From an uncultured Deferribacteres bacterium (GTDB taxonomy: Bacteria; Zhuqueibacterota; Zhuqueibacteria; Zhuqueibacterales; Geothermadaptataceae): a stretch of DNA of 39,134 nucleotides. Positions 3,213 to 38,855 of the stretch are shown piece by piece. Position 1 is the stretch's first letter. Every line of letters begins with the position of its first letter. The stretch is taken from contig CAXHAT010000062.1 of NCBI GenBank assembly GCA_964014485.1, positions 1 through 39,134 of the forward strand, given 5' to 3'. Both the position numbers and the translations under genes were made by a program. Under the pieces are notes generated by a model. That model saw nothing but the letters and a program-made list of their open reading frames with translations. It did not search any database and was not told where the DNA came from.

Positions 3213-3227
3213 GTGTTTTTTTGAAGA

Positions 3228-6304: not shown

Positions 6305-6319
6305 GTGCGATAATCGCAT

Positions 6320-6354
6320 AAAAAAAAGCCCACGCGCTAAATAACGCGTGGGCT
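6320..6354 (-). terminator. Rho-independent terminator ending the early region
   Basis: AGCCCACGCG...CGCGTGGGCT stem plus T8. Confidence 0.8.
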
Positions 6355-6358
6355 AGGG

Positions 6359-8138: not shown

Positions 8139-8232
8139 AACAATCCTCCAAAGTTAAAACCGAACAAACCTACAAACTGAAAAAGCGGCGCGCCGGAGTC
8201 GAACCGGCGTGATACCGTCGCCGCTGCGCCCG

Positions 8233-8448: not shown

Positions 8449-8492
8449 AATTCGTTTCCTTGTGGTGTGGCGTGTTGACACGTGGCTATAGT

Positions 8493-8610
8493 TGCACGTC
8501 GTGTGCCAATCCGCAGAAAACCTTTGTTTTTGTTAGGTTTTCGGCGAATTGCTCTGTGGGTAGCTGTCTATAGATGGGACAGAAATCCCATTTAATTCCC
8601 ATTTTGGGAC
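8493..8610 (-). promoter_or_regulatory. Sigma-54 (-24/-12) promoter with upstream enhancer-like sites, copy 1
   Basis: TTGGCACACGACGTGCA (GG-N10-GC) at 8493-8509; upstream AT tract and GTCCCA motifs. Confidence 0.7.
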
Positions 8611-8852
8611 TCTCGCAACATAGCGCTAAGAGTTTTCTGTTCCGATTCGTGCAGTTCGGCGCGTTTGTGGTTGAGGGTTGAAGCCGTGACTCGCAGGATT
8701 TCAATTTCTTCGCGCAGCGTTCGCAGCCGGCGTAGGATGCACCAAGCCCAATCTGATTTTGTGATGCGGCTCTGAAAATGTTTCAACTGCGCGGCGGGTA
8801 CTTCGCCGTGATTCAAAAGTCGGCGAAGCTCGTTGGAAAGTGGTTGGTCCAT
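8592..8852 (-). CDS. Hypothetical protein (86 aa)
   Basis: ORF directly downstream of structured RNA copy 1. Confidence 0.55.
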   Translation of the reverse strand: MDQPLSNELRRLLNHGEVPAAQLKHFQSRITKSDWAWCILRRLRTLREEIEILRVTASTLNHKRAELHESEQKTLSAMLRESQNGN

Positions 8853-8886
8853 GATGGTTTTCTTTTTTGTTAGATGTGAAAAAAAT

Positions 8887-8991
8887 ATTCGCCGGACTCT
8901 CGCGCCCCCTCTGCTGATGCGGTTGGCGCGGGTGATCGGAATATCACGGCTACGGGTCAGCGCCTAGGACGCCACCCGTCGCCCGGCGAAT
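8887..8991 (-). ncRNA. Structured RNA motif, copy 1
   Basis: ~90-nt core nearly identical to 9455-9558, closed by a 9-bp stem ATTCGCCGG/CCGGCGAAT. Confidence 0.7.
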
Positions 8992-9006
8992 GGAAGGGGC
9001 GACTGC

Positions 9007-9294
9007 TCAGGATTGCTCAACGCGGCCAGCGACTTCGATCTCGAACAATTCGTTCTCATCTGAGAATCCTTCGAATAGGTCGCACGGCTCGAAAAAGTCT
9101 TCGTGGTATCCAGCGGTGAGCAACATGCCCAATTCTTCATCGGTCAAGTTGGAGACGGATCGAGTTCGGACGATTTGGCCCAACTGCTCGTGGGTGATAA
9201 TTTCTTCGGCCGCGGCGTGCATCAAGCAGTAGCCAAGTTGCTCATCGTTGAGGTTGGACAGTAAACCAAGGGGTTTTGCGGGAGTGTTGGTCAT
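9007..9294 (-). CDS. Small acidic hypothetical protein (95 aa)
   Basis: AAGGA RBS; internal repeat SNLNDEQLG / SNLTDEELG; acidic C-terminus. Confidence 0.7.
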   Translation of the reverse strand: MTNTPAKPLGLLSNLNDEQLGYCLMHAAAEEIITHEQLGQIVRTRSVSNLTDEELGMLLTAGYHEDFFEPCDLFEGFSDENELFEIEVAGRVEQS

Positions 9295-9333
9295 GGTCGC
9301 GGTTCCTTTTTTGGGAAGGGAAAGTAAAAGCGA

Positions 9334-9426
9334 TCAGTCAAAAATGCCAAGGATCGATTCCAGCACGATCCCCAGCAGCACGCCGATGGCCAGCGTTATC
9401 ACGGAAAGTACAAGTGCGATGCTCAT
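9334..9426 (-). CDS. Single-helix membrane peptide (30 aa), not in the ORF track
   Basis: AAGGAG RBS; MSIALVLSVITLAIGVLLGIVLESILGIFD. Confidence 0.65.
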   Translation of the reverse strand: MSIALVLSVITLAIGVLLGIVLESILGIFD

Positions 9427-9454
9427 TTTTTCTCCTTAGGAAGAGTAAAACAAA

Positions 9455-9558
9455 GCCTGCTGGACTCTCGCGCCCCCTCTGCTGATGCGGTTGGCGCGGG
9501 TGATCGTTTCTCACGGCTACGGGTCAGCGTGTACGGCGCTACCCGTCGCCCAGCAGGC
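9455..9558 (-). ncRNA. Structured RNA motif, copy 2
   Basis: Same core as copy 1, closed by a different but perfect 9-bp stem GCCTGCTGG/CCAGCAGGC. Confidence 0.7.
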
Positions 9559-9605
9559 AACAAAACGCCGCCGGGGAGTTGCACCCCGGCGAAGGCTGTG
9601 CGGCG

Positions 9606-9788
9606 TTAGGGCAAGCTTTTCAGCAACGTCTGCATGTCAACGTACGTTAGCTTTTCGGCGATTTTGGTTAGCTTGCGGGTGTGGTGGCGGGTGTCGTCCA
9701 GGTTCGGATCAGAATCCCTGTTTTTGAGAAATCGCGAAACGAACTCTTCGATCATCCAATCGCGTCCAGTCTTTTTTTCGTCTTGCAT
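9606..9788 (-). CDS. Hypothetical protein (60 aa)
   Basis: TTTGGAGGATTG RBS. Confidence 0.7.
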   Translation of the reverse strand: MQDEKKTGRDWMIEEFVSRFLKNRDSDPNLDDTRHHTRKLTKIAEKLTYVDMQTLLKSLP

Positions 9789-9904
9789 AATTCAATCCTC
9801 CAAAGTGTAAAAAGTGAAACCTCTGAACAGCCGACCGTCGCGGAATCGAACCGCGAAAAACCTCTCGGCCGGTGTGGGGTGATTGCGGCTCACCCCAAAG
9901 CCCT

Positions 9905-10015
9905 GGCTGTTTGCGACGAGCCTCGCGGCGGCGGCTAGATTTCGATAGCCTGCTAAACCGTCCAGCGTTTTTTCCGACCGGCTGGTGGCCACGGCTGTTT
10001 GCGACGAGCCTCGCG
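9905..10015. repeat. 23-nt perfect direct repeat GGCTGTTTGCGACGAGCCTCGCG
   Basis: Copies at 9905-9927 and 9993-10015. Confidence 0.8.
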
Positions 10016-10114
10016 TCGGGTCAATTGTCACCGCTGACTCCTCACGGGTGGGCCTTACTCCGCCCACAGGAAAAAGCGAGTGGCGGGAGTCGAACCCGCC
10101 AAAGCCGCGTCTCG

Positions 10115-10339
10115 CTAGGCTGAGGCGATTTTTGTTGGCCAGGGTATGCAGATAAAAATCAAAACTGCATACCAAAACCAGCCCCCGCCTAAGGCGCCGA
10201 GCATCGACCATCCGATCGGGAGCAGAAACAAAGCAGAACCGATTTGTAAAGTAAAGGCGCTGCGAAAGTGAACCCCGATCAACATGATCGAAACACAAAA
10301 AATCGTCCAAGCCAAAACAACAATCAAACTCAGCAACAT
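10115..10339 (-). CDS. Small multi-pass membrane protein
   Basis: TTTGGAGG RBS; about three hydrophobic segments. Confidence 0.7.
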   Translation of the reverse strand: MLLSLIVVLAWTIFCVSIMLIGVHFRSAFTLQIGSALFLLPIGWSMLGALGGGWFWYAVLIFICIPWPTKIASA

Positions 10340-10654
10340 GGGAACCTCCAAAAAGTAAAAGTGAAACTGTTGTTAAAAGCCGCTGCGGGAATCGAACCCG
10401 CGTTACCAGGGCGGCTTGTGTGTTGTCGTCGTCGTTTTCTCATCGCCGGGCGATCGTGTCGCAAAAACCAGCGGCCCTTACCGTTGCCGGCGGGCGTGAG
10501 AGGGCAGGCGAGCGAACCGAAGGACTCTCAACTACGCGTGAGAAGCGCCGCAGAGTGCGGGATTGTAATCTTCGGCCACCAATTTAATGGTGTGCATCGG
10601 CCAGCCGTTCGAATTTTAAAAGAGCAAGTTGTCGTGTTGACGATTGACTATAGA

Positions 10655-10782
10655 TGCACGTCGTGTGCCAATTCGCAGAAAACCCGCAAACCTTTGTTTT
10701 TATTGGGTTTGCGGCGAATCGCTCTGTGGTTAGTTGTCTACAAATGGGACGAAAATCGCAAAATGGGACCCATTATGGGACA
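10655..10782 (-). promoter_or_regulatory. Sigma-54 promoter with upstream enhancer-like sites, copy 2
   Basis: TTGGCACACGACGTGCA at 10655-10671; region ~10634-10760 is a diverged duplicate of ~8473-8590; repeated GTCCCA motifs. Confidence 0.7.
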
Positions 10783-10786
10783 GGGG

Positions 10787-11017
10787 TCAGCGCCCCCAAC
10801 GAATTTTGGCGCGCTGAATATCGGGATCACTCTCTCGCTCGGCGATATGGCGCTCGAGATCGTCACACGTGGTAAGCAGTACGCCGCTCACTTTGATGGA
10901 CGGAAGCGGGCCTCGCATAATCTGTACGGCGCGCTGCCGGCAAACGTTGAGGCGCGACGCCACTTCCTTGACGCCGATCAAGCGGCCGGCGATGTGTTTG
11001 GTGAGTAATTTTGGCAT
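10787..11017 (-). CDS. Helix-turn-helix (AlpA/excisionase-like) protein
   Basis: LIGVKEVASRLNVCRQRAVQIM...LPSIKVSG. Confidence 0.7.
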   Translation of the reverse strand: MPKLLTKHIAGRLIGVKEVASRLNVCRQRAVQIMRGPLPSIKVSGVLLTTCDDLERHIAERESDPDIQRAKIRWGR

Positions 11018-11074
11018 ATCTATAGGACAGGTTATTCGCGCCCCCCTCCTATTATATGGAGCGGCTATAGCGAA

Positions 11075-13255
11075 TCAACTAGTGATGATGTCGCGGAGGC
11101 GTGGAGCCTGCTTCGCCCACGATCGCCTTTCCGCCCATGCCCTCGCCTGCACGCTGGCCTCGCTGATGTCGCGTCTGTGCCAATGGCGCATTAATCCGGC
11201 TAGCGCCTCCGCATCACTCTCCGCGGCCTGAATCGTGCGCGCCAGCCGCTCGCTGCGATACACGCAGGGGATCTTGTCGAGGTGGTTGTATTCACTCATC
11301 GGAGGCGCGTCCGTGCAAATAAGCGGCATGCCGCACGCCTGAGCCTCGAGCGCCTGAAGGCCGATCCCCTCCCAACGGCTGGGAAAAAGCAACACGTCGC
11401 CGTGAGCGTACAGTTGCTCAGGACACGACGCCTCGCCCATAAAATTGACGTGTTGCGGCCATCGCACATTGCTAGCCCCATGACCACGATATTGCTGCTC
11501 GTATACGATTAGCGGTATTTCAGGACACATCTCTGCCGCGCGAGCTACAATGTCGCCGCCTTTGCGCCCCTTGCTGCCACGGTTGCCGTGTACAAATAAA
11601 TACGACCGGACACGATCGCGGCGGCGAAAAGAGAATCGCTCCGTATCCACCGGCCACGGAAAAAGATGGATGCGGTTGGCCGGAAAGTGCTGGTGCAAAA
11701 AACGATAGCAATACTCGTTGGGGGCAATCCACAAATCAACGGATTTAACCCACGACGCCCCTGGATCAAGCCACTCATGCATAGGCACACACGCCGTCTT
11801 CACGCCGCACTCTTTGGCGGCCTCAAAAAATCCCGATACCGGCATCAATTCGGCGAACACCACCACGCTCAGATTAGATAAAAACTCGCGCACTTCCTGC
11901 CCCGCATTGCCATCGCAAAAAATGCTCTGCGTGCATTCCAGGGAGTCGAGATGAGGCACTCGGTGCGCGGGAATCAACCACTTATCTGCCGGCAGATGAC
12001 GCACTAAATCACGGTTGAGATACCCCAATCCCTGCGCCGTATTGTAGCCCACAACGCCTATACCTGAATCTACTTTCTGTCGAGGCGTAGTAATCTCTAC
12101 GCGATTATTTTGCGGCCATTCTCCTTGAGTGCAATCAAAATCTTCGCCAACAAAAGTGGGAGCCATGCGGCTATGATTATGATCCAATGAGGCGGACAAT
12201 CCTGGATGCATTACGCTTGTCTCACCAATGTGTTGAGCGAGACTGGGTGAGTGGTAATAAACTTTATACCCCCTTTTATTCATCCATCCACCGATTGCAT
12301 TATCGAGGCAATGTCTACTCTTGCGGTCAATCAAGTCAGCGTCGGTGATTATCTCTTTTGCAACATGACGTGGAATAATCCACGCGCATGCTCCAACTAA
12401 TTGACGACCGCGATTCACCGGCTGAAATCCATACTCGTTCGATTCATATCCATGCGGTGTGTATAACGATAACAAACCAGCATCCCGCGGAAAATGCACA
12501 TTTTCTAGGTATGCGCGTACATATCTTGCAAAAACAACGTCATCCTGACACAACAAGATATGGCTTGACTGAGGGTTAGAAACATAAAGTTCGGTTAACG
12601 ATAAAAACCAATTCTGCCAACCGCCTGTTGTTCTTTGCCTGGTGGTTGTTACGGAATTTTCTGGAACGCTCGAATTTCCGTCCACGAAAATCACAAAATA
12701 ATTCCACCCTGCCAAATTCAAACTGCTTGTTGTACGAGTTAACGTCTCTTTGCGCCGTTGCGTGGTTGTTATGCCAACTGCATACACACGTTTTCTATCC
12801 TCACTTTTTTTTTTAATGTGGGGAATGGGGAACGCCATGGCGGAAATTAAATCGCCAGGATAAGAAGGAGTGTCTGGATCGTCCTCAGAAACCGAGCGAG
12901 CCAAAGATGGAGTGTAAAAATAAATAGAAAGACCATTTCTCTTGGCCCACCTGCCAAGGTTTTCATCGCCTGAATTCGCGAATTCTCTAAGAACGTCGGA
13001 GTTAAATAACAGGCAAAAATTGCAATTGAATCTTTCTCCGATATTGCAAGATGACAATTTACCCCACCTCGACTCAAAAGCGCGAGGTGTGAAAAAAGAG
13101 CAAGCCGCGGCGTCATCTGGGATCAAAAATTGCTCAGAAAAAGCAGAAATATCTTTGCAACATTTAACGCCGCGACGCCGCAAAAGGACTCTAGAATCTG
13201 GTCGAAAAAACCCCCCGCCTAATTCACCAATGTTGCTGAATTCAATGTCATACAT
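11075..13255 (-). CDS. Multidomain glycosyltransferase (GT-A/GT2-like plus GT-B/GT4-like)
   Basis: VIFVDG, LLCQDDVVF, GACAWII and PSLAQHIG (GT-A); RKGGD and PSRWEGIGLQALEAQACGMP (GT4 EX7E motif). Confidence 0.85.
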   Translation of the reverse strand: MYDIEFSNIGELGGGFFRPDSRVLLRRRGVKCCKDISAFSEQFLIPDDAAACSFFTPRAFESRWGKLSSCNIGERFNCNFCLLFNSDVLREFANSGDENLGRWAKRNGLSIYFYTPSLARSVSEDDPDTPSYPGDLISAMAFPIPHIKKKSEDRKRVYAVGITTTQRRKETLTRTTSSLNLAGWNYFVIFVDGNSSVPENSVTTTRQRTTGGWQNWFLSLTELYVSNPQSSHILLCQDDVVFARYVRAYLENVHFPRDAGLLSLYTPHGYESNEYGFQPVNRGRQLVGACAWIIPRHVAKEIITDADLIDRKSRHCLDNAIGGWMNKRGYKVYYHSPSLAQHIGETSVMHPGLSASLDHNHSRMAPTFVGEDFDCTQGEWPQNNRVEITTPRQKVDSGIGVVGYNTAQGLGYLNRDLVRHLPADKWLIPAHRVPHLDSLECTQSIFCDGNAGQEVREFLSNLSVVVFAELMPVSGFFEAAKECGVKTACVPMHEWLDPGASWVKSVDLWIAPNEYCYRFLHQHFPANRIHLFPWPVDTERFSFRRRDRVRSYLFVHGNRGSKGRKGGDIVARAAEMCPEIPLIVYEQQYRGHGASNVRWPQHVNFMGEASCPEQLYAHGDVLLFPSRWEGIGLQALEAQACGMPLICTDAPPMSEYNHLDKIPCVYRSERLARTIQAAESDAEALAGLMRHWHRRDISEASVQARAWAERRSWAKQAPRLRDIITS

Positions 13256-18600: not shown

Positions 18601-18771
18601 CTATTTGGTTTTTTCTTTGCTTGATTCTTCTTCCTTACGCATGTCCAGGTCAACATATCGGCAAGATCCTTTTTCAACGCCAAATCTCTCTAGCCTTTTC
18701 GGGCGCTGCTCAATATGTTCTTCGATTTCTTTTTTGAATTTATTAACATGCTCTGATTTTTCGTTATTCAT
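18601..18771 (-). CDS. Small charged protein downstream of the second ART (possible immunity or partner protein)
   Basis: Start overlaps the ART stop. Confidence 0.5.
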   Translation of the reverse strand: MNNEKSEHVNKFKKEIEEHIEQRPKRLERFGVEKGSCRYVDLDMRKEEESSKEKTK

Positions 18772-19768
18772 TTGTTTCAATTTCATCAAGTTGATATACT
18801 ACCATGTTTTTACCAAGCGTCTTACGAGTTTTTTTCCCAACTACACGGTAATGCGTTCCATGCCTCTGCATAAGCTCCGTCTCCGGCTTGAATTGGGAAT
18901 ATGGCGCAACATAATGACCTGTTTTCGCACGGACTTCAAACATTGTTCCCTTACCCCATCCCGCATAAGAAATTGCCACATGTGGAGTTGTTGTTGTTGA
19001 GCGCATTCCGTCAAATGTCACCGCACCGTCATTTTTCAACGCTTTTTCAACATTTTCTATAATTGATGGGTCAGTTGTTTCTCGCAAACCAAAGTATACC
19101 GTTTCCGGCTCTGGAAGCTTCTGGGAGGCAAGTTTTTGGAGTTCGTCAAGTTTCCATTTATTGTGCTCGTCTACGCAATCAAGTGTTTCAGGGCATTCTC
19201 TTAATCTCCGATTGAGACGAGAATAGCTTGGAGAAGTATAGAACTTTATGGCTTGTAATTCTTTTTCGTTCAGCGGTCCCTGAGTTTTCTGCCATTTCGA
19301 CAAAGAAAAATACTTAAAAACTGAAGAGACTAACGAACGAAAGGATTTGGGGAATTCTCGCGCCGACTCCTCTTGGGATTTTGAAAACGCGCCCTGCTTG
19401 TTTTTCTTCAAAGATAAAATTTTGTCAACCGTTCTATTTTCTTTTCCTTTCGCCTTTTTGTCCTCATCACCTCCTGACAACTTTGCTTTTTCTTTCGGGG
19501 TGGCGCCATCCATCACTTCTTTGGGAATAAACTCACCGCCCTTGAAATTTTTTCCACCAATACTTACGCCACCCTTAGGGGCATGCACCGCTCCCATACG
19601 TCTTACTCGCAGCGCCAACAGTGTAATTGAAATTTTGCGCCCAGGACTCGATGACACATCAATGCATGCAGGCTGGATGACGTGCAGACGTTGGAAACAT
19701 GCCGCCGATAGCCGCGAAATATGCAATTTTTTTGCATCTCTCATCGACAACCTTTTTATTTTTTTCAT
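18764..19768 (-). CDS. Second ADP-ribosyltransferase-fold protein (paralog), with the conserved Arg position replaced by Phe
   Basis: YTSPSYSRLNRRLRECPETLDC, TVYFGL, RSTT, PETELMQ; N-terminus homologous to 15542-17569. Confidence 0.8.
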   Translation of the reverse strand: MKKIKRLSMRDAKKLHISRLSAACFQRLHVIQPACIDVSSSPGRKISITLLALRVRRMGAVHAPKGGVSIGGKNFKGGEFIPKEVMDGATPKEKAKLSGGDEDKKAKGKENRTVDKILSLKKNKQGAFSKSQEESAREFPKSFRSLVSSVFKYFSLSKWQKTQGPLNEKELQAIKFYTSPSYSRLNRRLRECPETLDCVDEHNKWKLDELQKLASQKLPEPETVYFGLRETTDPSIIENVEKALKNDGAVTFDGMRSTTTTPHVAISYAGWGKGTMFEVRAKTGHYVAPYSQFKPETELMQRHGTHYRVVGKKTRKTLGKNMVVYQLDEIETNE

Positions 19769-20034: not shown

Positions 20035-23000
20035 CTAAAACACTGCTGTGGAAGTGTGTTTGCTCCATATCCTCCCGAAACCCTTCGATCCGAATCGCAC
20101 CTTATCGACTCGCTCCCAAAACGCATCGATCTCTTTTTTTGTAAGCAACTCCCCCTGCTCACCTTGCGTTAATTCGGCAGTAATTTTTTCCTTATTCTCC
20201 GCCAAATTATCAAGCGCTGCCACGGTCTCGCGAGATAAATTCTCATTTTCTCCAATCAAATCATGTGCAAATGTGCGAATCTTGGGATAATACTGACCGC
20301 GGCCGTCTTTGCGTGGCTTTGGCTCTTTTGCTCCATTTAAAGTATATCCCCCAGGTTCTCCAAATGAAAGGCCATTGTCAATTAGCGCAATCTCCAATCC
20401 GCCCCCTTCTTTGGGACGCGCCATAATATTAGCGGAATGCCGATCCTTATTACCTGTTATCAGATCGAATACAGCCAATCTCTCTCGCGTGCGTTTCCCT
20501 GCCGATTCAACCAATCCCTTGTACGAAAACCTTGGGTCGCCGCCTGACATCTCTTGCAAATCTGAAAAAGTATTTCCGCCGCCAAAAAATTCCTGGACGC
20601 TTCCAAGGCCCTTGTGTCCTTCGCTGAGCACCGTTTCCGGGACAAGCCCAAAGCCAAGCGCCTTGTCGATAATCGACGCCGCCGCCTCACGCTTATACTG
20701 CTGATCATGCGGAAAGCCTGATCTCAGGATGTTCATGTTTTCTCCGATCTTCGGCTTGTAGACCCCCTGAGAACCGTTTTCTAACTTGACCATATACGCG
20801 CTGTTTGTCCCCTTTTGAGCGCCGATCGGACCATGCGATACGATTTTCGATCGCACCCCTTTGCCAGTGGTTTTCGCCGCAGCAATTCTTTCCTTTCGCT
20901 TGCCGCCTAATTTAGAAAAAGCAGAAAACACGGCGTTTATCACGCCTGCATTTTTTCCTGTTTTCTCGCCTTCATCCTCCATCAGCGCATCGGTCGATTG
21001 CGAAGCGCCCGCCTGCGATTGTTTCTTTTGAGTCGGTTCGTCCCCCGTCTCTGCATGCTGCTGAGCGGCTACCTGATCCACTTCCGTTTGACTCTTGCCC
21101 GGAATAAACTGCCCGCCAGGGTAGAATTTGCCGTCGATGTTCACGCCGCCCTTCGGGGCTTGAGCAAGTTTTTTGCGATTTGTGCTCAACTTTTCCCACA
21201 CCGCGTCTAAAATCGCATCATCTTCTTCGCTCAAAAAGATTTCTTCGCCAGCTCCGCCTGACTTTTGCTTAGTGCTTAGCGCCATTTTCTGTTTCCGATT
21301 CTTTTTTTCCTCTTGGTAAGCCGACAGCACCCTCCGCGACAAACTCCCCTCGCTTAAATCAAATGTAGCCAAAAATGAGTCGCCGTTTTCTTTCCACCAT
21401 TCCCGACCCTCTTTCGATTTCATCAAGTCCGAAATGCGATTCGCCGAAGAAAGCGACTTCGGCAATTTGCTTTTTAGTTTGGGGTTAATTTCTCCGTCGT
21501 ATCCCAAGCGAGGCCAAACGTAATAACCAAACATTTTGTTGTCTGGGTCGTCTTCTCGCGCCGCCCAGCATTCTATCCTTTTGAATCCCGACTCAATCAT
21601 TTTTTCCACTTGCGCAGAAAAAACTTGCATCCCTAACCCGCCGCCTTGATGTTGGGGGGGGATTTCAAACGACTCGTTGTAAATCCAGTCTTCATAAACC
21701 TGACGATTGAATTTAGCTTCGCTTTCATCGTCAAATTCAATTGTGCCCTGCGCATAAATGTGATCGCCGTAAGAACTTAACAGCACATGGGCATCGTCCG
21801 GCGCACCCACAACATCAGCAAACTTTTCATCTGGGAAATCTGCACCAAAAAGATTGGCCTTGGTTCGTTGGTATGCCTCTTTTTGGTCTTTTGTAAAATC
21901 CTTGACTTTAACCGTGGCTTTCGAGCGGCGTGAAGAATGAATTTCAGCCTGACCACCACTCGGCTTATTAGTGTTACTTTCGTTTTCATCCAAATGCCAT
22001 CGACCGCCCCGCAGCACTTCCCGATGACCCGCACGATTGACACGAGTATCCCCCTCTCTAGCCAATCGCTGCGCCGACAACCTTGCCGCAATCTTTCGCC
22101 GCGTCCGCTGCACAATCTTTTCCGCACCGTCCTGCGCCACCTTGCTCCGCAACGACATCTGCATAGCGCCCGGATCGGCGCCCGGAGGCGGAGCCTGCTC
22201 ACCTCCAGGCGGTTGCTCGCCGCCTTGATGCCGCTCCATCGCTTGCTCACCGAGCGGCTGGAATGGACAATTAAAATCGATCGCCTTGCCAAAATTGTAA
22301 TATACCGCCGGCTCCGCCACCTGCGTTTCGAAGTCGTCCACAATCCGAGACAACCACAAATCCAGACCCGTAAAGTAGGCATCCATCGGGACTTGTTTGC
22401 CCTGCCAAGCGCCGGTCGCCTGGCTCATTAGCACGTCGTCAGGTATCTCCAGCCCGCGCAAAATCTCCACATCGCAGTCTTTAGGATACTGCAAGATATG
22501 CGCCGGATTAGCTGACACCTGCGCCGGAGTCCAATCCCACATCTCTCGACCGCCCTCGTCATACACCCTCGGCAGCGCCACCACGTTACCGGCCATCGCC
22601 TGCTCAATCATCTCCCGCATAATGTCGCGATTCGGCACTTCCCCCTTGCCGTCAATATTCGTGGTGCCCGGAGGATACGCGCCGCGCACGCCCGTGTACG
22701 AGTCCTTGCGCATGAACAAACGCCGCACATCCAATGCACCGCCGTCTAGCCACTTGTCCGCCCACGGAGAATAAGCGCCATGACAAATAGATTGACCATA
22801 GTACGAATCGCTCTCCGGCTGATAAGAATGCCAGAACGCTTTAGGCTTTCTCAAATCAACATGACTCTCTCCTGCCACACGTTTGAACCGCACTCCCGCC
22901 AACCGTCCACGCGACTCGAGCGCAATTACGTCCCTTGCATGACGCTCCAACAAATCGTCAAAGAGAATTTTGTCGCCCTGTTGCTTCCAGATTATTTCGC

Positions 23001-23364
23001 CCGCCATCCACCCCCACGTTTGCGCCTTAATCACCTTCGGCAACGCTTTTTTCCAAAATTGCTTTCTCAGGTCATCAACAAACTTCGCAACTTCCTCGCT
23101 GGGACTTTCCGCGCCGTCCACCCACTGCCCGTCTTGATCGCGACCAAACTTCGCGCCTACAATTGCCGCGGCGCGCATGGCCAGACCCAGCTTAACCGTT
23201 TGGTCCATCAACATAGCCTCGATGGTCGCAAACGTAAAATAGGGCAGGTCGCGGGGCTGTCGAAACAGACGAACGGGCAGAGGCCGGTAACCCTCGGTCG
23301 CCGGATGTTTGTCTGTTGTAAATAACGCCTTGACGGCGTTTTTAACGCGCCCCATAAGTGGCAT
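20035..23364 (-). CDS. Portal protein (Mu gp29/DUF935-like) fused to GNAT acetyltransferase and PI3/4-kinase/HipA-like kinase domains (1109 aa)
   Basis: N-terminal ~400 aa are portal-like (MLMDQTVKLGLAMR, GWMAGEIIW, YYGQSI, PAVYYNFG). GNAT motif A QHQGGGLG and GYYVWPRLGY. Kinase motifs GVYKP, REAAA, VPET, NKDRHSAN, IDNGLSF. Confidence 0.8.
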   Translation of the reverse strand: MPLMGRVKNAVKALFTTDKHPATEGYRPLPVRLFRQPRDLPYFTFATIEAMLMDQTVKLGLAMRAAAIVGAKFGRDQDGQWVDGAESPSEEVAKFVDDLRKQFWKKALPKVIKAQTWGWMAGEIIWKQQGDKILFDDLLERHARDVIALESRGRLAGVRFKRVAGESHVDLRKPKAFWHSYQPESDSYYGQSICHGAYSPWADKWLDGGALDVRRLFMRKDSYTGVRGAYPPGTTNIDGKGEVPNRDIMREMIEQAMAGNVVALPRVYDEGGREMWDWTPAQVSANPAHILQYPKDCDVEILRGLEIPDDVLMSQATGAWQGKQVPMDAYFTGLDLWLSRIVDDFETQVAEPAVYYNFGKAIDFNCPFQPLGEQAMERHQGGEQPPGGEQAPPPGADPGAMQMSLRSKVAQDGAEKIVQRTRRKIAARLSAQRLAREGDTRVNRAGHREVLRGGRWHLDENESNTNKPSGGQAEIHSSRRSKATVKVKDFTKDQKEAYQRTKANLFGADFPDEKFADVVGAPDDAHVLLSSYGDHIYAQGTIEFDDESEAKFNRQVYEDWIYNESFEIPPQHQGGGLGMQVFSAQVEKMIESGFKRIECWAAREDDPDNKMFGYYVWPRLGYDGEINPKLKSKLPKSLSSANRISDLMKSKEGREWWKENGDSFLATFDLSEGSLSRRVLSAYQEEKKNRKQKMALSTKQKSGGAGEEIFLSEEDDAILDAVWEKLSTNRKKLAQAPKGGVNIDGKFYPGGQFIPGKSQTEVDQVAAQQHAETGDEPTQKKQSQAGASQSTDALMEDEGEKTGKNAGVINAVFSAFSKLGGKRKERIAAAKTTGKGVRSKIVSHGPIGAQKGTNSAYMVKLENGSQGVYKPKIGENMNILRSGFPHDQQYKREAAASIIDKALGFGLVPETVLSEGHKGLGSVQEFFGGGNTFSDLQEMSGGDPRFSYKGLVESAGKRTRERLAVFDLITGNKDRHSANIMARPKEGGGLEIALIDNGLSFGEPGGYTLNGAKEPKPRKDGRGQYYPKIRTFAHDLIGENENLSRETVAALDNLAENKEKITAELTQGEQGELLTKKEIDAFWERVDKVRFGSKGFGRIWSKHTSTAVF

Positions 23365-33227: not shown

Positions 33228-34538
33228 CTATACTTTGGTGGTCTCAGATGAAAACATGCGATTCTTTTTGAAGACATCATCAATTACTTTTTGCGCGTCT
33301 TCGTCGCTGATATCGTCGAACTTCCCGCTGACGTGCGGAGGTTGATCTTTCGCCGTGATCGTCGGGCTTGCCATACGCAAATGCTGCTGCAAATCCACCA
33401 CGCTGTTTTCCGGGATTGCTTCGCGGCTTTCGATCCACTTTTCCGGGTCGGTCTTTCCAACAGTGCCGTTGGCCTTCACCGATAATCTCTGAACTTTAAT
33501 GAGCGACATCTGCCGCTTCATCTCGGACGGCGTGCATCGGCCTGTTTGCGATAAATGTTCAAGACGCTCCATCAGCGACAAGCGATGACGGCCAGTGAAC
33601 ATTTTCTCTTGAGCGACCATTTGTTGTTTCATGCCCTTTAGCTGCTTGTCATATCGCTGAGACAACGCGGCAAATTCAGGCGGAACTGCGTTCATTTCTT
33701 CGGTCCCTTCTTCTGGAACATCCTCGGTCATATCTTCCTCTTCGTACTCATCCATCTCTTCCTCGTTGGCGTTGAGCGCGTTAATAACCGCGGTCATGAG
33801 GAGTACAAATCCTTCGTCGCTCATCGGGTCGAAATCAACCGGGATCTCCGCGCCGACGCGGCTCATGACTTCTTCCGCTAAAGTCTTGTACTGCCCGCCG
33901 TCGTCCTCACCCGGCCCGTCGTTGTCGGACTCAACAGACTCGTCGGTGAAGTCTTCTTCGCCTTCCATTTCGTCTTCGTTGTCGTAATCCATTTCGTCGT
34001 CATCGCCCATGCGGTACACTTTCGGTTTTCCCATATCCAATCCCATTCGTATGGCGCATGCGATCGCGCCGGATTCAACAGGCTCAAAAGGGCTTTGCGA
34101 ATCATCAACGGGATGATTCACGAAATCTACGTGTGTGATCGTATCTTTGTAGTTTCTACCTCGGCCGTCCTGCCACTCCGAAAAAATGACCGGCGAAACA
34201 TAAACGCTATTCGACTCCGCCTTGGCCGCGGCTGCGGGATCGTGAATATCCATCAGAATTTCGGCCTGACCATTCTTCACCGAAAAATTTTCCAGCTTTC
34301 CGACCGTGTTGGATGCCGACCTCTTCTTAAAATCGTTGATCGAGAGCGGGACGGCGTTGGTTGGGTCGTCGTCATGGTCCCAGTCGATCGGCACAATCTG
34401 GTTATTGCGTCGCAACCGATTGAACTGCTTTTCCCAATGCTTGAGCCTCTGCGGCGTAACGTCCACTACGCCGTCGGGCGAGACATATCGTCCCGGTTTG
34501 AGAATCGCCTTGCGAAATTTTTTAGATGAAGCAACCAT
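33228..34538 (-). CDS. Prohead protease/scaffold (Mu gpI-like)
   Basis: PIDWDH, YVSPVI, THVDFVNHP; acidic scaffold-like C-terminal half. Confidence 0.8.
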   Translation of the reverse strand: MVASSKKFRKAILKPGRYVSPDGVVDVTPQRLKHWEKQFNRLRRNNQIVPIDWDHDDDPTNAVPLSINDFKKRSASNTVGKLENFSVKNGQAEILMDIHDPAAAAKAESNSVYVSPVIFSEWQDGRGRNYKDTITHVDFVNHPVDDSQSPFEPVESGAIACAIRMGLDMGKPKVYRMGDDDEMDYDNEDEMEGEEDFTDESVESDNDGPGEDDGGQYKTLAEEVMSRVGAEIPVDFDPMSDEGFVLLMTAVINALNANEEEMDEYEEEDMTEDVPEEGTEEMNAVPPEFAALSQRYDKQLKGMKQQMVAQEKMFTGRHRLSLMERLEHLSQTGRCTPSEMKRQMSLIKVQRLSVKANGTVGKTDPEKWIESREAIPENSVVDLQQHLRMASPTITAKDQPPHVSGKFDDISDEDAQKVIDDVFKKNRMFSSETTKV

Positions 34539-34652
34539 TACTATAGATGTAACGGATGCTTGCTATTACAAAAAGGAAGATATTTTAAAAGAAGTCACTA
34601 AATGTGATTGAACGCTACCAAACACTACCAAACAGATGCAAAAAAAGCGCAT

Positions 34653-34680
34653 AAAAAAAACGCCCCGTGAAAGGGGCGTT
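34653..34680 (-). terminator. Rho-independent terminator closing array B
   Basis: AACGCCCC-TTTCAC-GGGGCGTT followed by a T-run on the minus strand. Confidence 0.85.
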
Positions 34681-34708
34681 AAGAAAAATTGTCATTGCGT
34701 GCGCTTAT

Positions 34709-35149
34709 CTCGCAATCCCCACGTGCGCGCGAATCGAAGCGCACCGCCAACACTCTCGCCAACACTCTCGCAATCCCCACGTGCACGCGAAGTGCACCTC
34801 CCTTGACATTATTTCGCTACGCGGACGCCTGGTCTCGCAATCCCCACGTGCGCGCGAAGCGCACCGTGCTCTCCGGTCGGCAATCAATATTGCCGGTGAT
34901 ACTCGCAATCCCCGCGTGCGCGCGAATCGCACCTTTTTGCTTCTTTTATCTCGCAATCCCCGCGTACGCGCGAAGCGCACCCTGGCTGAGCATGGGCGAC
35001 TACAAGAGGCTGTGGCGCTCGCAATCCCCGCGTGCGCGCGAAGCACGCCATTTATTTATGACCGTAATCTCGCAATCCCCACGTGCGCGCGAAACGCACC
35101 TTGAACAAACCTATCCAAAAGCATCGAAACCCGCACTCGCAATCCCCAC
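34709..35149 (-). CRISPR. CRISPR array B: 7 full repeats plus one 3'-half repeat; consensus GGTGCGCTTCGCGCGCACGTGGGGATTGCGAG (32 nt)
   Basis: Repeat starts (+) at 34709, 34767, 34834, 34902, 34950, 35018, 35069 and 35136. Spacers are 21, 35, 36, 16, 36, 19 and 35 nt. Repeats carry a GTGCGC/GCGCAC hairpin. Confidence 0.93.
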
Positions 35150-35155
35150 ATCTCT

Positions 35156-35800
35156 CTAGTTTTGCGCTAAATTTCGCAAACTGTCAATCCCATAGTCGTA
35201 ATTTTCGTCGTCACTGGTACGCCATTTTGCAGACTGTTCGCTTGTATAAAGATGTGATGCGAGCTTGCGCGAATAACGCTCATCCTTCGTTACGAAATTC
35301 GGGTCGAATAACCTTACGCGATTGTTCGGCTGAATCGCAAAATTGCCATTGTCCAATTGTAAAACGTGGCCGCACTTATGCTGGCCCGGTGTCTCCGAAA
35401 AACCGTAACTGCGCAGGTCGTCGCCGAACCAATCAAGAGTAAATAAATACACGCCCACGTGTTCTTTTCTGTTTCTATCTACGTACGAAAGGCGTTTATG
35501 TTTCAAAATATCAAATACACATACATGACAGTTGTAAGAAAACGAATCCCATAAGCACACCTCGTCAAGAGATACTCGCCGCGCGTCTCGCTTATGACAA
35601 AAAGCGTGAATCGGCATACGCCACCATATACCGCCGTCGTCTGCGAAAAAATGAAAGAGCGGCGTTTGACCGGGGATCGAAGCAACGCCAAATATCTGAA
35701 CCGGCACAAACTCGCCGACATACTCCGCGCCGTGTTGATTCATAAACTCAAGACGGCAAAACGCTTCAATTGTCGGTATATTAATGTTCATCGCACGCAA
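35156..35800 (-). CDS. Conserved hypothetical phage protein
   Basis: WRMPIHAF, LWDSFSY, YLFTLDW and NGNFAIQPNNRV motifs recall a widespread uncharacterised phage family. Confidence 0.7.
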   Translation of the reverse strand: MRAMNINIPTIEAFCRLEFMNQHGAEYVGEFVPVQIFGVASIPGQTPLFHFFADDGGIWWRMPIHAFCHKRDARRVSLDEVCLWDSFSYNCHVCVFDILKHKRLSYVDRNRKEHVGVYLFTLDWFGDDLRSYGFSETPGQHKCGHVLQLDNGNFAIQPNNRVRLFDPNFVTKDERYSRKLASHLYTSEQSAKWRTSDDENYDYGIDSLRNLAQN

Positions 35801-35801
35801 T

Positions 35802-37034
35802 CTAACCTGACACTATCTCAATCGTGTCCGCGTGTTTTGTAATCCCGTTGGTAACGGTCAAAGTGTTGTGCGGGTCGCGAACCATCGAATTAGGCTTGAT
35901 CGTCAAATCGGTAAACGTCCTTGACGAGGGATCGTTTTCAAATGTCAATAACGACTGCTCTCGTCCGCCGCCCACCGTCCCCGCAGTGCAAGTGCCACTA
36001 GAGCGATAATCACAAATCCCGCCGGTGTGTGTGAGCGTCGTCACCGTCGCCGTTCCGTAAATAGTTGAACTTCCTCCGCTTTGCGTCAGCGTGGTTACAT
36101 TGCTATCTATCTGGATAGACCCTCCTCGCTGCTGCACGGTGGCCAGCGTCACCGCGGCGGACATCAACAAATCACCAGCGTTTCGCACGGTGGTATACTG
36201 CGCCGCCTCCCCGCCGTAAATGGCAACACCGACGCTCCCCTCTTGCACTTCCAGCGTGTTGCTTGCGTGTGAACCTTTAAGCAGCAGCGCTGCAACGCCG
36301 TCCTCTGTTCCTCCACCGGTCTTTATCACCTCAATGGCGGTCTGAACTGTTCCCGAATTAATTTTAATCCGCGGACTGCCCGAACCGTCACCTACGCCAA
36401 TGCGAATCGTAGAACAATCAATCTCGAGGAAGTCCGCGCGATATTCGTTGTAACCGTTGGCGTTGGTTTTCGGTAAACCAATCTCGCCCGTAAAACTGGC
36501 GTCAACGGTGAAACTCGTCAGCGTCGCACCAGAGAGTTGATCCAAATTATAGAGCAACGACACGTTTGTGTTTTCCACAAAAACGTCATCCGCCGCCCCC
36601 GGCACACTCCCCTCGCTCCAATTGTTGGCATTGTTCACATCATTGGGGCCAGTCGCCGCCTGACTCTGCGCACCCGTCGCCGTGCCGCTCCCGGCAGTCG
36701 ACTCCGTGACCGTAATCGCAAACGGCAATCCGTCGGTGCTACCAGTCAACGTTACCACCGACCCCGAAACCGTAGAATCAAACTCACTGAATTGTGGAAT
36801 GTTGTCGCCCGTGTTTGTGCGGCTCTCATCGCCCACCAAGGCATCGCCCTCGAGCATCGCTTTCAGCGCTGCTGCCACGTCGGTGGTCGCAACGCTGGTG
36901 CCGACTGTAAGCACCAATGACGCACCACCAATTGTAACCGTCAGCGTGTCGTTCTGCGCCCAAGTGTTTGCGATAGTGATGGTGCGTATTTCGGGTATCG
37001 CAGCCGCGCGTCCGATCCAACGTGAGTTTGCCAT
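35802..37034 (-). CDS. Putative virion structural protein (T/G-rich beta-helix-like, 410 aa)
   Basis: Composition and repeated TxTxxGG turns. Confidence 0.55.
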   Translation of the reverse strand: MANSRWIGRAAAIPEIRTITIANTWAQNDTLTVTIGGASLVLTVGTSVATTDVAAALKAMLEGDALVGDESRTNTGDNIPQFSEFDSTVSGSVVTLTGSTDGLPFAITVTESTAGSGTATGAQSQAATGPNDVNNANNWSEGSVPGAADDVFVENTNVSLLYNLDQLSGATLTSFTVDASFTGEIGLPKTNANGYNEYRADFLEIDCSTIRIGVGDGSGSPRIKINSGTVQTAIEVIKTGGGTEDGVAALLLKGSHASNTLEVQEGSVGVAIYGGEAAQYTTVRNAGDLLMSAAVTLATVQQRGGSIQIDSNVTTLTQSGGSSTIYGTATVTTLTHTGGICDYRSSGTCTAGTVGGGREQSLLTFENDPSSRTFTDLTIKPNSMVRDPHNTLTVTNGITKHADTIEIVSG

Positions 37035-37044: not shown

Positions 37045-37326
37045 TTACTTTTTTTTATGCACAAACTTTTGTTCGCACTCATACAACGTCAAAAACGCCT
37101 CCGCGACGCATTTTGGAATTTTTGCGCGGCCCGACGGAGTGCGTACAAACTTGATGCGGCCCGTGTCTTTCCAATTTTGCACTTGCGATTTTGTAACCGA
37201 AAACATATCCGCCACTTCCTGAAAAGTCAAAAGCGGCTCGCCGAACATGACGGTCTCGCCCGTGTTCTTCTCCACAGTGACAAATGACCCCTGATTATCT
37301 CGCGATTGTGTGCGTTTCTTAGCCAT
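37045..37326 (-). CDS. MerR/excisionase-like HTH protein
   Basis: LLTFQEVADMFSVTKSQVQNWKDTGRIKFVRTPSG. Confidence 0.8.
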   Translation of the reverse strand: MAKKRTQSRDNQGSFVTVEKNTGETVMFGEPLLTFQEVADMFSVTKSQVQNWKDTGRIKFVRTPSGRAKIPKCVAEAFLTLYECEQKFVHKKK

Positions 37327-38855
37327 CAAAATTTAATTACTCCCCCCCAGGTTTGTTTTTTCTTCTTTTTGCAGCAATACGCTGCGTAACTGCTCACGTC
37401 GATTTGATCCGCAGGCTCCTCGTCCAGCCCCGTCCACGACACCAATTCCGCCTCGTAAGCCGCCAACCACTCGGCCTCAATCGGAAGGAAAATACGACCC
37501 TCCTCAAGCATATTGAGCAGACCCGAAGCAACAGCCCGCTCAAGTTTCGCGCCGCCGTTCGTTCCCGCCCCTTTCTGCGTCGGCAACACCGGTCCCACCA
37601 AGTGTACGTTCGATTTGTTCAATTCCTCTTTCAACGCCGGGCCGAAGTGTGCGTTCTCGATATAAATCGCCGCGGGGTTCCACACACCCGTATAATAGAT
37701 TATTCTATTTTTCAAGCTGTTCCAACTTACTCGGTATCTCCACATATACCTTAAAAATAACCGATGTGAAGTCGCGTCGTAATCCCAAATACCCATCGTC
37801 GACCAGGACGCCTTTTTTCCTTTTTTCTCCTCAGCTTTTTCCTTCGACGTCCCCGCCGTGTCGATGGTGGCAAGGCGAGTGCAAAGTCTTGCATCAATGG
37901 CGTTATATGCTTTGTCGTCACGGACCTCTCGTAAAATCTCTCCCTGCAAGCTGTATCGCCGAAACCACGCTTGGTTGATTATCGAGTCCTCGCGGATCGT
38001 CCAGTCGCCCTCGATCAGACGTTGGCGGGTCACCTTGGGCAAGTGCCATAGCTTGGCGACGTACTCTTGTTCATCGATGGCGGGATTGTCGCGGATAAGC
38101 GCCGGAATAAACGCGCGGCGAGCGTCCACCCAATACGCCCTTGGCGTCGGGTCGCCGATCGATGCAATCGATTCGTCGGTAATAAATCGGTTCTTCACAA
38201 ATTCATGGCCGATGTTTCCCGGATTACTCGCCGCGCGAAAACGCAAAGGTATATCGCTATCTTTAGTTCGTCGTAATCGAGAAAACAAAAACAAGTAAGG
38301 ATTATCTTCGCTTGGATTATCTTCGTCCGCCGGCAATCGAAACTCGGTTAGTTCGTCCCAGCCGATAAACTGATACTCCGCCGAAGCGTAACGAAAACGA
38401 TCGTTTGGACTGTCGATATAACCAAACTGAATCGTTGCTCCGGACGCGAAAGTAAACGTTTTCTGCTGCTCATTCCAGTTCACCCCGCGCGGCAAAAGCC
38501 AACTCTTTGCCCGGTCCATAATCGCACCGGACAAGCTGAGCCGTGCATAATCGCGACGCAAAATCAACGCTGAATAATCAGGGCAGTCAACATACTGTAG
38601 CGCCGCCATTAACAGCCATTCAGTTTTTCCGGGGCCGGCGCTCCCGCCATAAAGTAATTCTTCGCAATCGATCGAAAGCGCCAATGCTTGCTTGGGCCAA
38701 GGGACGTGTGGGCAGTATTTAAGTATCTGCTCCCACCCGACCATTGCCGCCATTGTTTGGTGCAGGCCGGCTATTTCGTCCGTCGTTGACTGCGGCGATT
38801 GCAGCCAAGAGCTGAGCAAACCGATCTCGCTGTTGCTCGGGGGTAAAATCGTCAT
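37326..38855 (-). CDS. terL: Terminase large subunit
   Basis: YGGSAGPGKT Walker A, IGWDELT Walker B, ASNPG, nuclease IDTA...DQID. Confidence 0.92.
   Translation of the reverse strand: MTILPPSNSEIGLLSSWLQSPQSTTDEIAGLHQTMAAMVGWEQILKYCPHVPWPKQALALSIDCEELLYGGSAGPGKTEWLLMAALQYVDCPDYSALILRRDYARLSLSGAIMDRAKSWLLPRGVNWNEQQKTFTFASGATIQFGYIDSPNDRFRYASAEYQFIGWDELTEFRLPADEDNPSEDNPYLFLFSRLRRTKDSDIPLRFRAASNPGNIGHEFVKNRFITDESIASIGDPTPRAYWVDARRAFIPALIRDNPAIDEQEYVAKLWHLPKVTRQRLIEGDWTIREDSIINQAWFRRYSLQGEILREVRDDKAYNAIDARLCTRLATIDTAGTSKEKAEEKKGKKASWSTMGIWDYDATSHRLFLRYMWRYRVSWNSLKNRIIYYTGVWNPAAIYIENAHFGPALKEELNKSNVHLVGPVLPTQKGAGTNGGAKLERAVASGLLNMLEEGRIFLPIEAEWLAAYEAELVSWTGLDEEPADQIDVSSYAAYCCKKKKKQTWGGVIKF

Follow-up and report, generated by a model that had tools for sequence, protein, structure and literature searches.

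Which machinery would read a CRISPR-like array that lies among the head genes of a phage? The question is raised by positions 34681-35149, on the minus strand, of CAXHAT010000062.1 (contig C62), a complete 39,134-bp contig of an 8.4-Mb metagenome-assembled genome (G000) and, at its full length, the window analysed here. C62 is a phage contig, with almost every gene on the minus strand. We lean towards reading the array as a fixed cassette of guide RNAs for a DNA binder of the phage itself, a predicted nuclease-dead Cas12f-like protein encoded at positions 700-1923. The link between array and protein is suggested by their co-occurrence in three phages, that of the window and two others; the transcription, processing, loading, DNA binding and targets of the cassette are what we infer. 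New here are a second guide cassette remote from the effector, inside the late operon, its half-repeat start and terminator end, a mix of spacer lengths that recurs in a relative, and a handle exactly as in type III arrays.

A leaderless array closed by its own terminator

The array and its parts are as follows.

34681-35149, minus strand: guide array of eight units, each an invariant handle followed by a spacer
35136-35149, minus strand: half repeat of the first unit, GTGGGGATTGCGAG, without the hairpin half, 6 nt past the TAG stop of the open reading frame (ORF) at 35156-35800
35100-35069, 35049-35018, 34981-34950, 34933-34902, 34865-34834, 34798-34767 and 34745-34709, minus strand: seven full repeats, each a 6-bp GC hairpin, then GY, then GGGGATTGCGAG
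34651-34680, minus strand: intrinsic terminator with an 8-bp stem (34680-34659), a 6-nt loop and T8, closing the array

An initial annotation of this DNA had described an array that opens 6 nt past a stop codon with only the 3' half of a repeat, and this was confirmed on the minus strand, as were the spacer lengths of 35, 19, 36, 16, 36, 35, 21 and 28 nt in transcript order. The handle, GGGGATTGCGAG, occurs in eight exact minus-strand copies (also as the 14-mer GYGGGGATTGCGAG, 8/8), with start-to-start spacings of 67, 51, 68, 48, 68, 67 and 58 nt in transcript order. It forms the 3' end of the 32-nt full repeat, GGTGCGCTTCGCGCGCACGYGGGGATTGCGAG, in seven copies, and the last repeat reaches 37 nt owing to a 5-nt loop insertion. 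With seven full repeats, one half repeat and eight different spacers, the array is of CRISPR type; its spacer lengths (16-36 nt) are unusually uneven for that type. A leader with a promoter and nearby cas1 and cas2 genes are lacking. Consistent with the earlier description of the array as leaderless and terminator-capped, no sigma-70-like promoter was found in 34300-36000, where shuffled sequences average 1.5, and the 8-bp stem and T8 end the array at 34680-34651. The array is most likely co-transcribed with the upstream gene at 35156-35800.

The count of eight handle-plus-guide units holds for handles and spacers, with two qualifications. The last 28-nt segment includes GCGCACG, identical to repeat positions 13-19, and may in part be a decayed terminal repeat. 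Spacer 7 (34746-34766, minus strand) is a 12-nt tandem duplication (AGTGTTGGCGAG AGTGTTGGC), whose unit resembles the handle (..AGTGTGTTGCGAG) of a related phage, IMGVR_UViG_3300033153_010600.

The hairpin varies and the handle does not, as had been noted: five of the six stem pairs differ in at least one repeat, and the 12-mer is exact in 8/8 units. Of the stem cells, 34/36 (94.4%) pair, and one pair has changed on both sides (G-C to A-U, repeat 7). Covariation in the hairpin is weak: 67/500 shuffles match the observed value, and with the register moved by 2 nt the stem pairs just as well, being an alternating GC run. A single repeat folds no better than its own shuffles (z -0.19); for the last unit the folding energy is -20.7 kcal/mol (z -2.75). 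Two of the short spacers, 2 and 4, are rich in A+T, with 21% and 19% G+C versus 52% for the contig. On the plus strand, the repeat hairpins beside these short spacers 4 and 2 (34916-34932 and 35030-35048) lead into T-rich stretches. They score as intrinsic terminators and could keep antisense transcripts from entering the array.

Among the 42 window ORFs scanned, none belongs to a Cas family, neither adaptation genes (cas1, cas2, cas4) nor type III genes. The anatomy of the array and the lack of adaptation genes agree with the fixed guide cassette initially proposed; that it was also "curated" is interpretation.

A nuclease-dead Cas12f-like protein encoded by the same phage

The presumed guide user and its neighbours lie near the start of the contig.

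700-1923, minus strand: P0001, a 407-aa protein and presumed guide user, ~32.8 kb from the array within the contig
99-371, minus strand: small zinc-ribbon ORF (CxxCGEPV..CRKNGC) downstream of the effector, with only its first ~45 residues conserved
437-697, minus strand: 86-aa ORF separating the effector from the first handle downstream of it

P0001 has no Pfam or PHROG family of its own. Its relatives form 241 sequence clusters at an E-value of 0.001 or better, and a profile built from 53 of these members matched, among structures in the PDB, SpCas12f1 (9i8y, E 4e-18), nuclease-deactivated Cas12f (9n9c, E 1.5e-13), AsCas12f (7wju, 8j12) and OsCas12f (9nzq). The AlphaFold model of P0001 (predicted local distance difference test score, pLDDT, 94.3) retrieved with Foldseek AsCas12f 8j12 (E 1.7e-19, template modelling score 0.60), the nuclease-dead Cas12f (dCas12f) 9n9c (E 2.7e-14, ~15% identity), TnpB 8h1j (E 2e-6) and Cas12m 8hhl (E 2.5e-5). 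A protein atlas search gave the same Cas12f lead. By profile and by Foldseek, P0001 thus has the WED-REC-RuvC fold of the Cas12f/TnpB superfamily.

The catalytic residues are largely gone. The RuvC-I Asp of GvDlG, in the alignment to 9i8y, is replaced in the family by L-v-p (EIVPAS in P0001), the near-invariant E of the family motif YREP is S in P0001, and the family proteins stop ~40-60 residues past PFDWT..GI, before the zinc finger and RuvC-III. Consistent with this, none of the 53 family members carries the TNB zinc-finger family PF07282. Because the RuvC-I Asp and the YREP glutamate are lost and the chain ends before the zinc finger and RuvC-III, P0001 cannot be expected to cut, and it is, judging by its sequence and structural model, a nuclease-dead Cas12f-like protein. 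An active type V-F nuclease is ruled out by the incomplete RuvC D-E-D triad and the missing TNB zinc finger.

The handle-then-guide order of the array had been read as type V polarity, and a type V-like protein is indeed encoded in the window. Its distance from the array, given earlier as ~33 kb, is ~32.8 kb on the contig. However, bases 1-24 copy bases 85-108 with one change, which indicates that the assembly broke inside a repeat unit, and the guide region downstream of the effector probably continues past the contig end at position 1. The distance is therefore valid for C62 and perhaps not the true one. The other end of C62 overlaps contig C222 by 55 nt; C62, C222 and a third contig, C424, total ~53.5 kb, which is close to the length of a 52,338-bp contig that elsewhere encodes an identical effector protein.

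The effector neighbours at 1979-2497 and 2500-3345 have no Pfam family, and no sigma-70 region was matched at E 0.01 or better among the 42 window ORFs. P0001-type proteins were found in 0/166 other genomes of the assembly's phylum, 401 Bacteroidota genomes gave three weak matches to the family, and cultured phages gave just a weak transposase match. Viral contigs contained no close relative of the effector, and one family alignment search yielded no confirmed match.

Arrays accompany the protein in two related phages

Scanning viral contigs with the protein returned one locus, in IMGVR_UViG_3300033153_010600 (G573, L221-L224), with a full-length relative at 33% identity (E 4e-68). This gene is flanked on both sides by arrays, of 14 and 24 repeats of GTGACGAYGGCTGAAATCNGAGAAGTGTGTTGCGAG. 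The repeat end, GTGTGTTGCGAG, aligns with ACGTGGGGATTGCGAG of the window with a 2-nt gap, the last 7 nt being identical. Its spacers comprise long ones of 36-39 nt and short ones of 18, 19, 22, 22, 23, 28 and 30 nt, and one 22-nt spacer is retained in both flanking arrays with one base changed. The comparison of arrays among related phages that had been proposed thus finds the mixture of short and long spacers again, and this mixture is to all appearances a trait of the family and not an accident of the window array. The zinc-ribbon ORF also follows the effector in this phage (57% identity over 42 aa, E 5e-14), so the module is conserved.

On its 61-kb contig GTGTGTTGCGAG occurs 74 times (54 forward, 20 reverse, control 0). 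Many solitary copies, read by eye, lie ~12 nt past TATAAT- or TACAAT-like boxes and 1-60 nt before ORFs, and some are followed by ~25-30 nt and then a hairpin or T-run, like the last unit of the window. Part of these units thus resemble single-guide genes with promoters of their own, and the handle may form the 5' end of some phage mRNAs.

A pattern scan of viral contigs for the exact 12-mer found one other phage, IMGVR_UViG_3300019360_000147, with 10 copies, all forward (control 0); a relaxed 9-mer pair scan returned 78 loci, with this phage as the sole true array among them. Its contig begins inside a distant P0001 homolog that is collinear with the family's C-terminal half (hhalign 93.6%, E 2.2e-7, 17% identity; hmmsearch E 8e-5). 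About 180 nt past this homolog stands an 8-repeat array ending in the identical 12-mer (repeat GGCACAATCGAATCCGAMACTCAGAGGGGATTGCGAG), which opens, as in the window, with only the 3' part of a repeat. Array modules of this phage lie at 830-1400, 6300-6470 and 10480-10760. Modules two and three, the smaller arrays, have in common a ~90-nt leader with a GC hairpin, and modules one and three share the same degenerate terminal repeat, followed by TCTGATCAGAAAGGAGAG (a ribosome-binding site) and a start codon.

Handle copies outside the array

Further handle copies occur on the minus strand of C62.

1967-1977, minus strand: handle variant GGGGATGCGAG, one base shorter, directly past the stop of ORF 1979-2497 and 43 nt 5' of the effector ATG
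432-421 (GGGGATAGCGAG), 400-391, 249-238, 211-200, 88-77 and 50-35, then GGGG at the contig end, minus strand: hairpin-less handle units downstream of the effector, from 270 nt past its stop

The exact 12-mer occurs 13 times in the assembly, 10 of these copies being on the minus strand of C62. Allowing one mismatch, the assembly contains 42 handle matches versus 9 for a reversed control pattern, and a looser pattern gave 15 minus-strand copies on C62 versus 1 on the plus strand. The abundance of the 12-mer is not due to chance. Outside the array, the copies cluster round the effector ORF on its own strand, and three of the downstream units (1-432) are built as a handle, 20-26 nt and a degenerate handle. 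The first unit of the array and the solitary units have no upstream hairpin, so that the handle alone is common to every unit.

More copies, in the same orientation, are present on contigs C222 and C424, 36-38 nt 5' of ORF starts. Together, a handle stands 36-49 nt before four ORF starts, namely those of the effector and zinc-ribbon ORFs in the window and of one ORF each on C424 (primase-like) and C222. Such copies may simply be guides cut from operon transcripts; within the window, none is preceded by promoter-like boxes. One copy on C424 (~1563-1590, minus strand) is preceded by GAAGTGTG, the start of the handle in IMGVR_UViG_3300033153_010600.

A proposed guide cassette for the phage's own protein

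Several observations support a cassette serving the phage's own protein. The phage encodes a protein of RNA-guided type with no other visible source of guides; handle copies flank its gene on the same strand; the first and solitary units lack the upstream hairpin needed for Cas6- or Cas5-type cutting; and the co-binned genome G000 has no type I or type V system and type III-D repeats of another kind. Given also the arrays in two related phages and the zinc-ribbon module, the phage's own protein would be the most economical guide user.

Under this proposal, transcription would read through from the packaging and head operon and stop at the array's own terminator. Each unit would consist of a 12-14-nt invariant 5' handle, the guide and then a GC hairpin, the latter supplied by the 5' half of the next repeat or, for the last unit, by the terminator. 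Since the hairpin would belong 3' of each unit, the first unit needs only a half repeat. The handle would be recognised by the Cas12f-like protein or by an as-yet-unseen partner, and the hairpins would serve as spacers, end-protectors or cutting signals. Loaded RNAs would start at or a few nt before GGGGAUUGCGAG and carry ~16-20 nt of spacer each, and the loaded protein would bind DNA matching about the first 16-20 nt of the guide without cutting it, and so act as a roadblock or regulator on DNA of the host or of rival elements. Spacers could lose a dispensable 3' part and keep their function, leaving the mix of 16-21-nt and 35-36-nt lengths. The 16-21-nt guides had been singled out as suited to binding without cutting. 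The predicted loss of nuclease activity agrees with such binding; as the protein appears dead, the same would apply to all guides and not just the short ones, and a special suitability is not needed. The shortest spacers, 16 nt in the window and 18 nt in its relative, are close to the 14-16-nt guides given for dCas12f in the available text of PMC13472631.

Points against a cassette for the phage's own protein

A number of findings weigh against this proposal. The co-occurrence of array and protein is seen in two phages beside that of the window, one of them with a partial gene only. No target or protospacer-adjacent motif (PAM) was found in any collection searched. The eight spacers and seven solitary units gave only chance-level matches (blastn-short) in the 8.4-Mb assembly. 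No guide targets were found between the window phage and the two related phages in either direction, and none of the window spacers matched INPHARED phages or PLSDB plasmids. Among 167 phylum genomes, G000 included, three matches outside G000 fell in permease coding sequence and A-rich stretches. The array spacers of IMGVR_UViG_3300033153_010600 had no match in INPHARED, and its 74 guides matched their own genome 11 times, versus 8 for shuffled guides.

Solved Cas12f complexes have long guide scaffolds, and none was found here. A scan for anti-handle duplexes in C62, C222, C424 and the IMG/VR phage gave nothing above the shuffled background. The region at 437-697 folds like its shuffles (z -0.05) and does not resemble a structured scaffold RNA, and for the corresponding effector-to-handle region of the IMG/VR phage the value is z -0.97. 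Moreover, the handle copies that stand before start codons, past -10-like boxes in the related phage as read by eye, may hint at a role as RNA leader.

Another objection comes from cellular arrays. Scans with the 12-mer pattern returned 13 stretches from the metagenome collection and 21 from the genome collection, most of them coding sequence or simple tandem repeats. Three are true cellular CRISPR arrays (L035, L037 and L038), with 36-37-nt repeats that have the identical 12-mer end and are wholly different upstream. The L035 array adjoins csm3, csm4, csm5, a CARF gene and a reverse transcriptase, the L038 array adjoins a TIGR02710 CARF gene, and L037 is an orphan array of 51 repeats in a Geitlerinema genome. 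No member of the P0001 family was found at the three loci, nor in the whole genomes of L037 and L038. Chance cannot account for 12 identical nt at one and the same repeat position, so the phage arrays are related to this group of class 1 repeats, the link being either one of descent or the reading of the AUUGCGAG tag by a type III machine of the host. A host class 1 system could thus be the real user of GGGGATTGCGAG. That two phage proteins ~17% identical go with an identical 12-mer is also more easily explained by a conserved host machine. The L037 array (8081-11682) is itself irregularly spaced: its repeats usually start 71-79 nt apart, yet distances of 37 and 60 nt also occur, so that some of its spacers are very short.

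Could a host class 1 system be the user?

According to this alternative, which we consider unlikely though well worth weighing, the array would either supply or obstruct a class 1 system of the host, most probably of type III, whose Cas proteins recognise the AUUGCGAG tag. Its products would be CRISPR RNAs (crRNAs) against rival phages, short crRNA-like regulators that keep defence genes of the host repressed, or decoys that sequester Cas proteins as RNA anti-CRISPRs. The 12/12 identity with the 3' repeat end of cellular type III-adjacent arrays speaks for it, as does the complete difference in the 5' repeat part among the cellular arrays, as among the phage arrays, and the lack of the dead-Cas12f family in the L037 and L038 genomes. 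The 32-nt repeat with its GC hairpin and the 35-36-nt spacers presumably also resemble class 1. Viral crRNA-like arrays for types I and V-A are described in the accessible part of a preprint (10.1101/2024.10.29.618823), and repeat-mimicking RNA anti-CRISPRs in that of PMC10651486.

The 8-nt 5' tag of the phage array is common with arrays beside csm/cmr genes. However, a Cas6-type site upstream of every tag and type III genes in the genome, which a type III array would have, are not found in the phage, and the first and solitary units lack the hairpin needed by Cas6-type cutting. Spacers of 16-21 nt are short for type III targeting. Furthermore, a host user would leave the phage's RNA-guided-type protein guideless and the arrays beside that gene in two other phages unexplained. 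Scans for the 12-nt end in the metagenome and genome collections returned no cellular array with the phage hairpin half, nor any with the phage's full repeat; the full repeat was not itself searched. For the tag AUUGCGAG, literature searches gave only unrelated papers on small interfering RNA and microRNA among the matches listed.

The initial annotation had assumed a Planctomycete host, which is not supported: the co-binned G000 has a type III-D system only, with other repeats. The type III-D locus and arrays of G000 are on contigs C60, C111, C161, C185 and C457; the locus includes Csx19, fused Cas7-like proteins of the repeat-associated mysterious protein (RAMP) type and a Cas6-like protein. 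A group II intron-type reverse transcriptase adjoins cas1-cas2, and there are at least five arrays with two variants of a 37-nt repeat. These repeats end in ..ATTGATAC or ..ATTGAAAC, unrelated to the phage repeat, and none of the 96 CRISPR spacers of G000 matches the phage contigs. No type I or type V system was found in G000, with no Cas3 above the cut-off and no TNB domain. The array is therefore no mimic of a G000 repeat, a verdict that applies to G000 and is not final for the true host. Identity of the repeats with a host array used only by host Cas proteins had been named as grounds for giving up a phage cassette. The arrays of G000 differ from that of the phage, whereas the 12-mer end is identical to that of cellular type III-associated arrays.

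A possible wider role for the handle

A genome-wide guide regulon is a broader and, in our view, improbable extension of the phage-cassette proposal. Here the dead Cas12f-like protein and a zinc-ribbon partner would read one short handle in three settings, namely arrays, single-guide genes with their own promoters, and the 5' ends of numerous ordinary phage mRNAs. Then mRNAs and guides would come from the same transcripts, which would couple expression to RNA-guided DNA binding. Since the handle is also a type III crRNA handle, the same RNAs or the protein could interfere with host type III immunity.

It is doubtful, in turn, that the 12-14-nt motif serves chiefly as a leader of phage RNAs or a signal for their processing, which marks mRNA 5' ends or cistron boundaries and is bound by the Cas12f-like or zinc-ribbon protein for control of stability or translation, the array being a by-product or titrating sink. 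The copies 36-49 nt before the four start codons would fit such a role, as would the 74 copies on both strands of the 61-kb related contig, many solitary and past -10-like boxes, and the fusion of both larger arrays of IMGVR_UViG_3300019360_000147 to a ribosome-binding site and gene start. Against this, the unique 35-39-nt spacers between regular repeats resemble captured foreign DNA, the protein has the fold of RNA-guided DNA binders, and the window copies have no promoter-like boxes.

Equally poor are the prospects of a decaying, functionless remnant of recombination, with the short spacers and half repeat as deletion scars: an absent adaptation module, the lack of targets, diverged repeats (five of six stem pairs vary), the internal duplication of spacer 7, the repeat fragment in the last segment and 80 other viral loci with upstream-gene homologs and no array all suit decay, but the handle is exact in 8/8 units while the rest of the repeat drifts, 34/36 stem cells pair (one double change included), a clean terminator closes the array, and the related phage has the same spacer-length mix and keeps one short spacer in both of its arrays.

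Comparison with known systems

The closest relatives in function would be dCas12f, TldR and Cas12m, all RNA-guided binders derived from TnpB or Cas12 nucleases. In the available excerpts of Hoffmann et al. (Nature 2026, PMC13472631), dCas12f of Bacteroidota is naturally nuclease-dead, its C-terminus being truncated so that part of the RuvC site is lost, and a CRISPR-array-associated dCas12f cluster is mentioned (structures 9n9c, 9n9m). Nuclease-dead Cas12f homologs of the P0001 family are encoded beside CRISPR arrays and may belong to that cluster. As far as those excerpts go, the two resemble each other in the Cas12f fold, the C-terminal truncation, a guide 3' of a repeat-derived handle, short guides and a trans-activating CRISPR RNA (tracrRNA) found in neither, and RNA-guided DNA binding without cutting is the role of dCas12f and is predicted for P0001. 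In contrast, P0001 is phage-borne and only ~15% identical to 9n9c. Unlike the dCas12f-sigmaE pairs, it has by Pfam no neighbour of the extracytoplasmic function (ECF) sigma or helix-turn-helix type, the zinc-ribbon ORF standing in that place. The guide units of the window are, moreover, spread over the genome, with one array in the head operon, and are arrays rather than single chimeric guide RNAs.

Type V-F Cas12f proteins (AsCas12f 8j12/7wju, SpCas12f1 9i8y, OsCas12f 9nzq) are the best profile and fold matches, are likewise ~400-430 aa long and have the same array polarity. P0001 differs from them in lacking the RuvC-I Asp, the TNB domain and RuvC-III, and no tracrRNA or anti-repeat and no cas1, cas2 or cas4 were found with it.

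TldRs are TnpB-like nuclease-dead repressors, some of them prophage-encoded, according to the accessible parts of bioRxiv 10.1101/2023.11.30.569447 and PMC13418256; like P0001, they would be phage-borne dead proteins of the TnpB lineage thought to regulate genes by RNA-guided DNA binding. P0001, however, is nearer to Cas12f (8j12, E 2e-19) than to TnpB (8h1j, E 2e-6). Each TldR works with one long scaffold RNA, which carries a single fixed guide and lies beside the gene; TldRs are not known to use repeat-spacer arrays.

Cas12m (type V-M), found on plasmids and in some prophages, is also a type V effector of mobile elements that blocks by binding DNA and not by cleaving it, as the available text of PMC11013384 and PMC11656645 has it. 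It belongs to another, larger Cas12 branch (8hhl, E 2.5e-5 against P0001). Cas12m keeps its RuvC site for crRNA processing.

On the RNA side, viral Cracr arrays have no cas genes, spacer-like parts of mostly 17-21 nt and units capped by rho-independent terminators, in the excerpts available of 10.1101/2024.10.29.618823. Cracr arrays and RNA anti-CRISPRs thus resemble the window array as cas-less phage mini-arrays with short spacers, terminator ends and binding without cleavage, the last being a prediction here; by the same partial sources, they copy the host repeat and use host type I or V-A Cas proteins, whereas the window phage brings its own effector-like protein. Literature searches returned no description of a phage-borne dead-Cas12f family with dispersed arrays, nor do the accessible parts of the review PMC11656645 contain one.

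The phage and the genes around the array

The phage nature of C62 is evident from a large terminase at 37326-38855 (phrog_979, E 3e-49) and from Mu-type portal, Mu F-like, Gp36-like, head decoration, neck and tail-completion proteins. Viral contigs yielded no close terminase relative, and Rfam gave no match in the window. The array lies between two genes.

35156-35800, minus strand: upstream gene (214 aa, phrog_3704), ending 6 nt before the array
33228-34538, minus strand: downstream gene (436 aa, no family); past it come genes for head decoration and of the capsid region

The phrog_3704 gene is labelled ferredoxin and has 353 confirmed relatives on viral contigs, at ~48-64% identity. None of 80 viral loci with homologs of it has a handle or array adjoining. 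Among 40 of the 80 loci that were kept and examined, none has neighbour genes in common with the window phage, a pattern typical of a mobile moron.

Between the portal-region and Mu F-like head genes, a 334-aa ORF (18764-19768, minus strand) carries an ADP-ribosyltransferase exoenzyme domain (PF03496, E 2e-9) and is possibly an injected or capsid-borne host-modifying enzyme. The portal gene (20035-23364, minus strand) is very long, encoding 1109 aa with the Mu-type portal domain N-terminal and a weak PI3/PI4-kinase-like match at residues ~960-1006 (E 2.6e-5, under the Pfam cut-off). Three DNA runs from a single study contained nothing but short pieces that almost match the window, of which one (151 nt) differed at 18 letters, so that no variation of the array was available for comparison.

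Implications

If the array does serve the phage's own protein, miniature Cas12f proteins that are dead by nature would make up a large branch in phages (241 clusters), as yet without a name. Their guides would be scattered through operons, the late head operon included, and guide supply would be tied to the phage transcription programme. The floor of 16-18 nt in spacer length, common to two phages, offers a testable estimate of the working guide length. The handle in common with type III arrays raises the question of whether such phages captured class 1 arrays or talk to a host type III system. There would be practical interest, too, in so compact a tool, a programmable DNA binder of 407 aa whose handle measures 12-14 nt.

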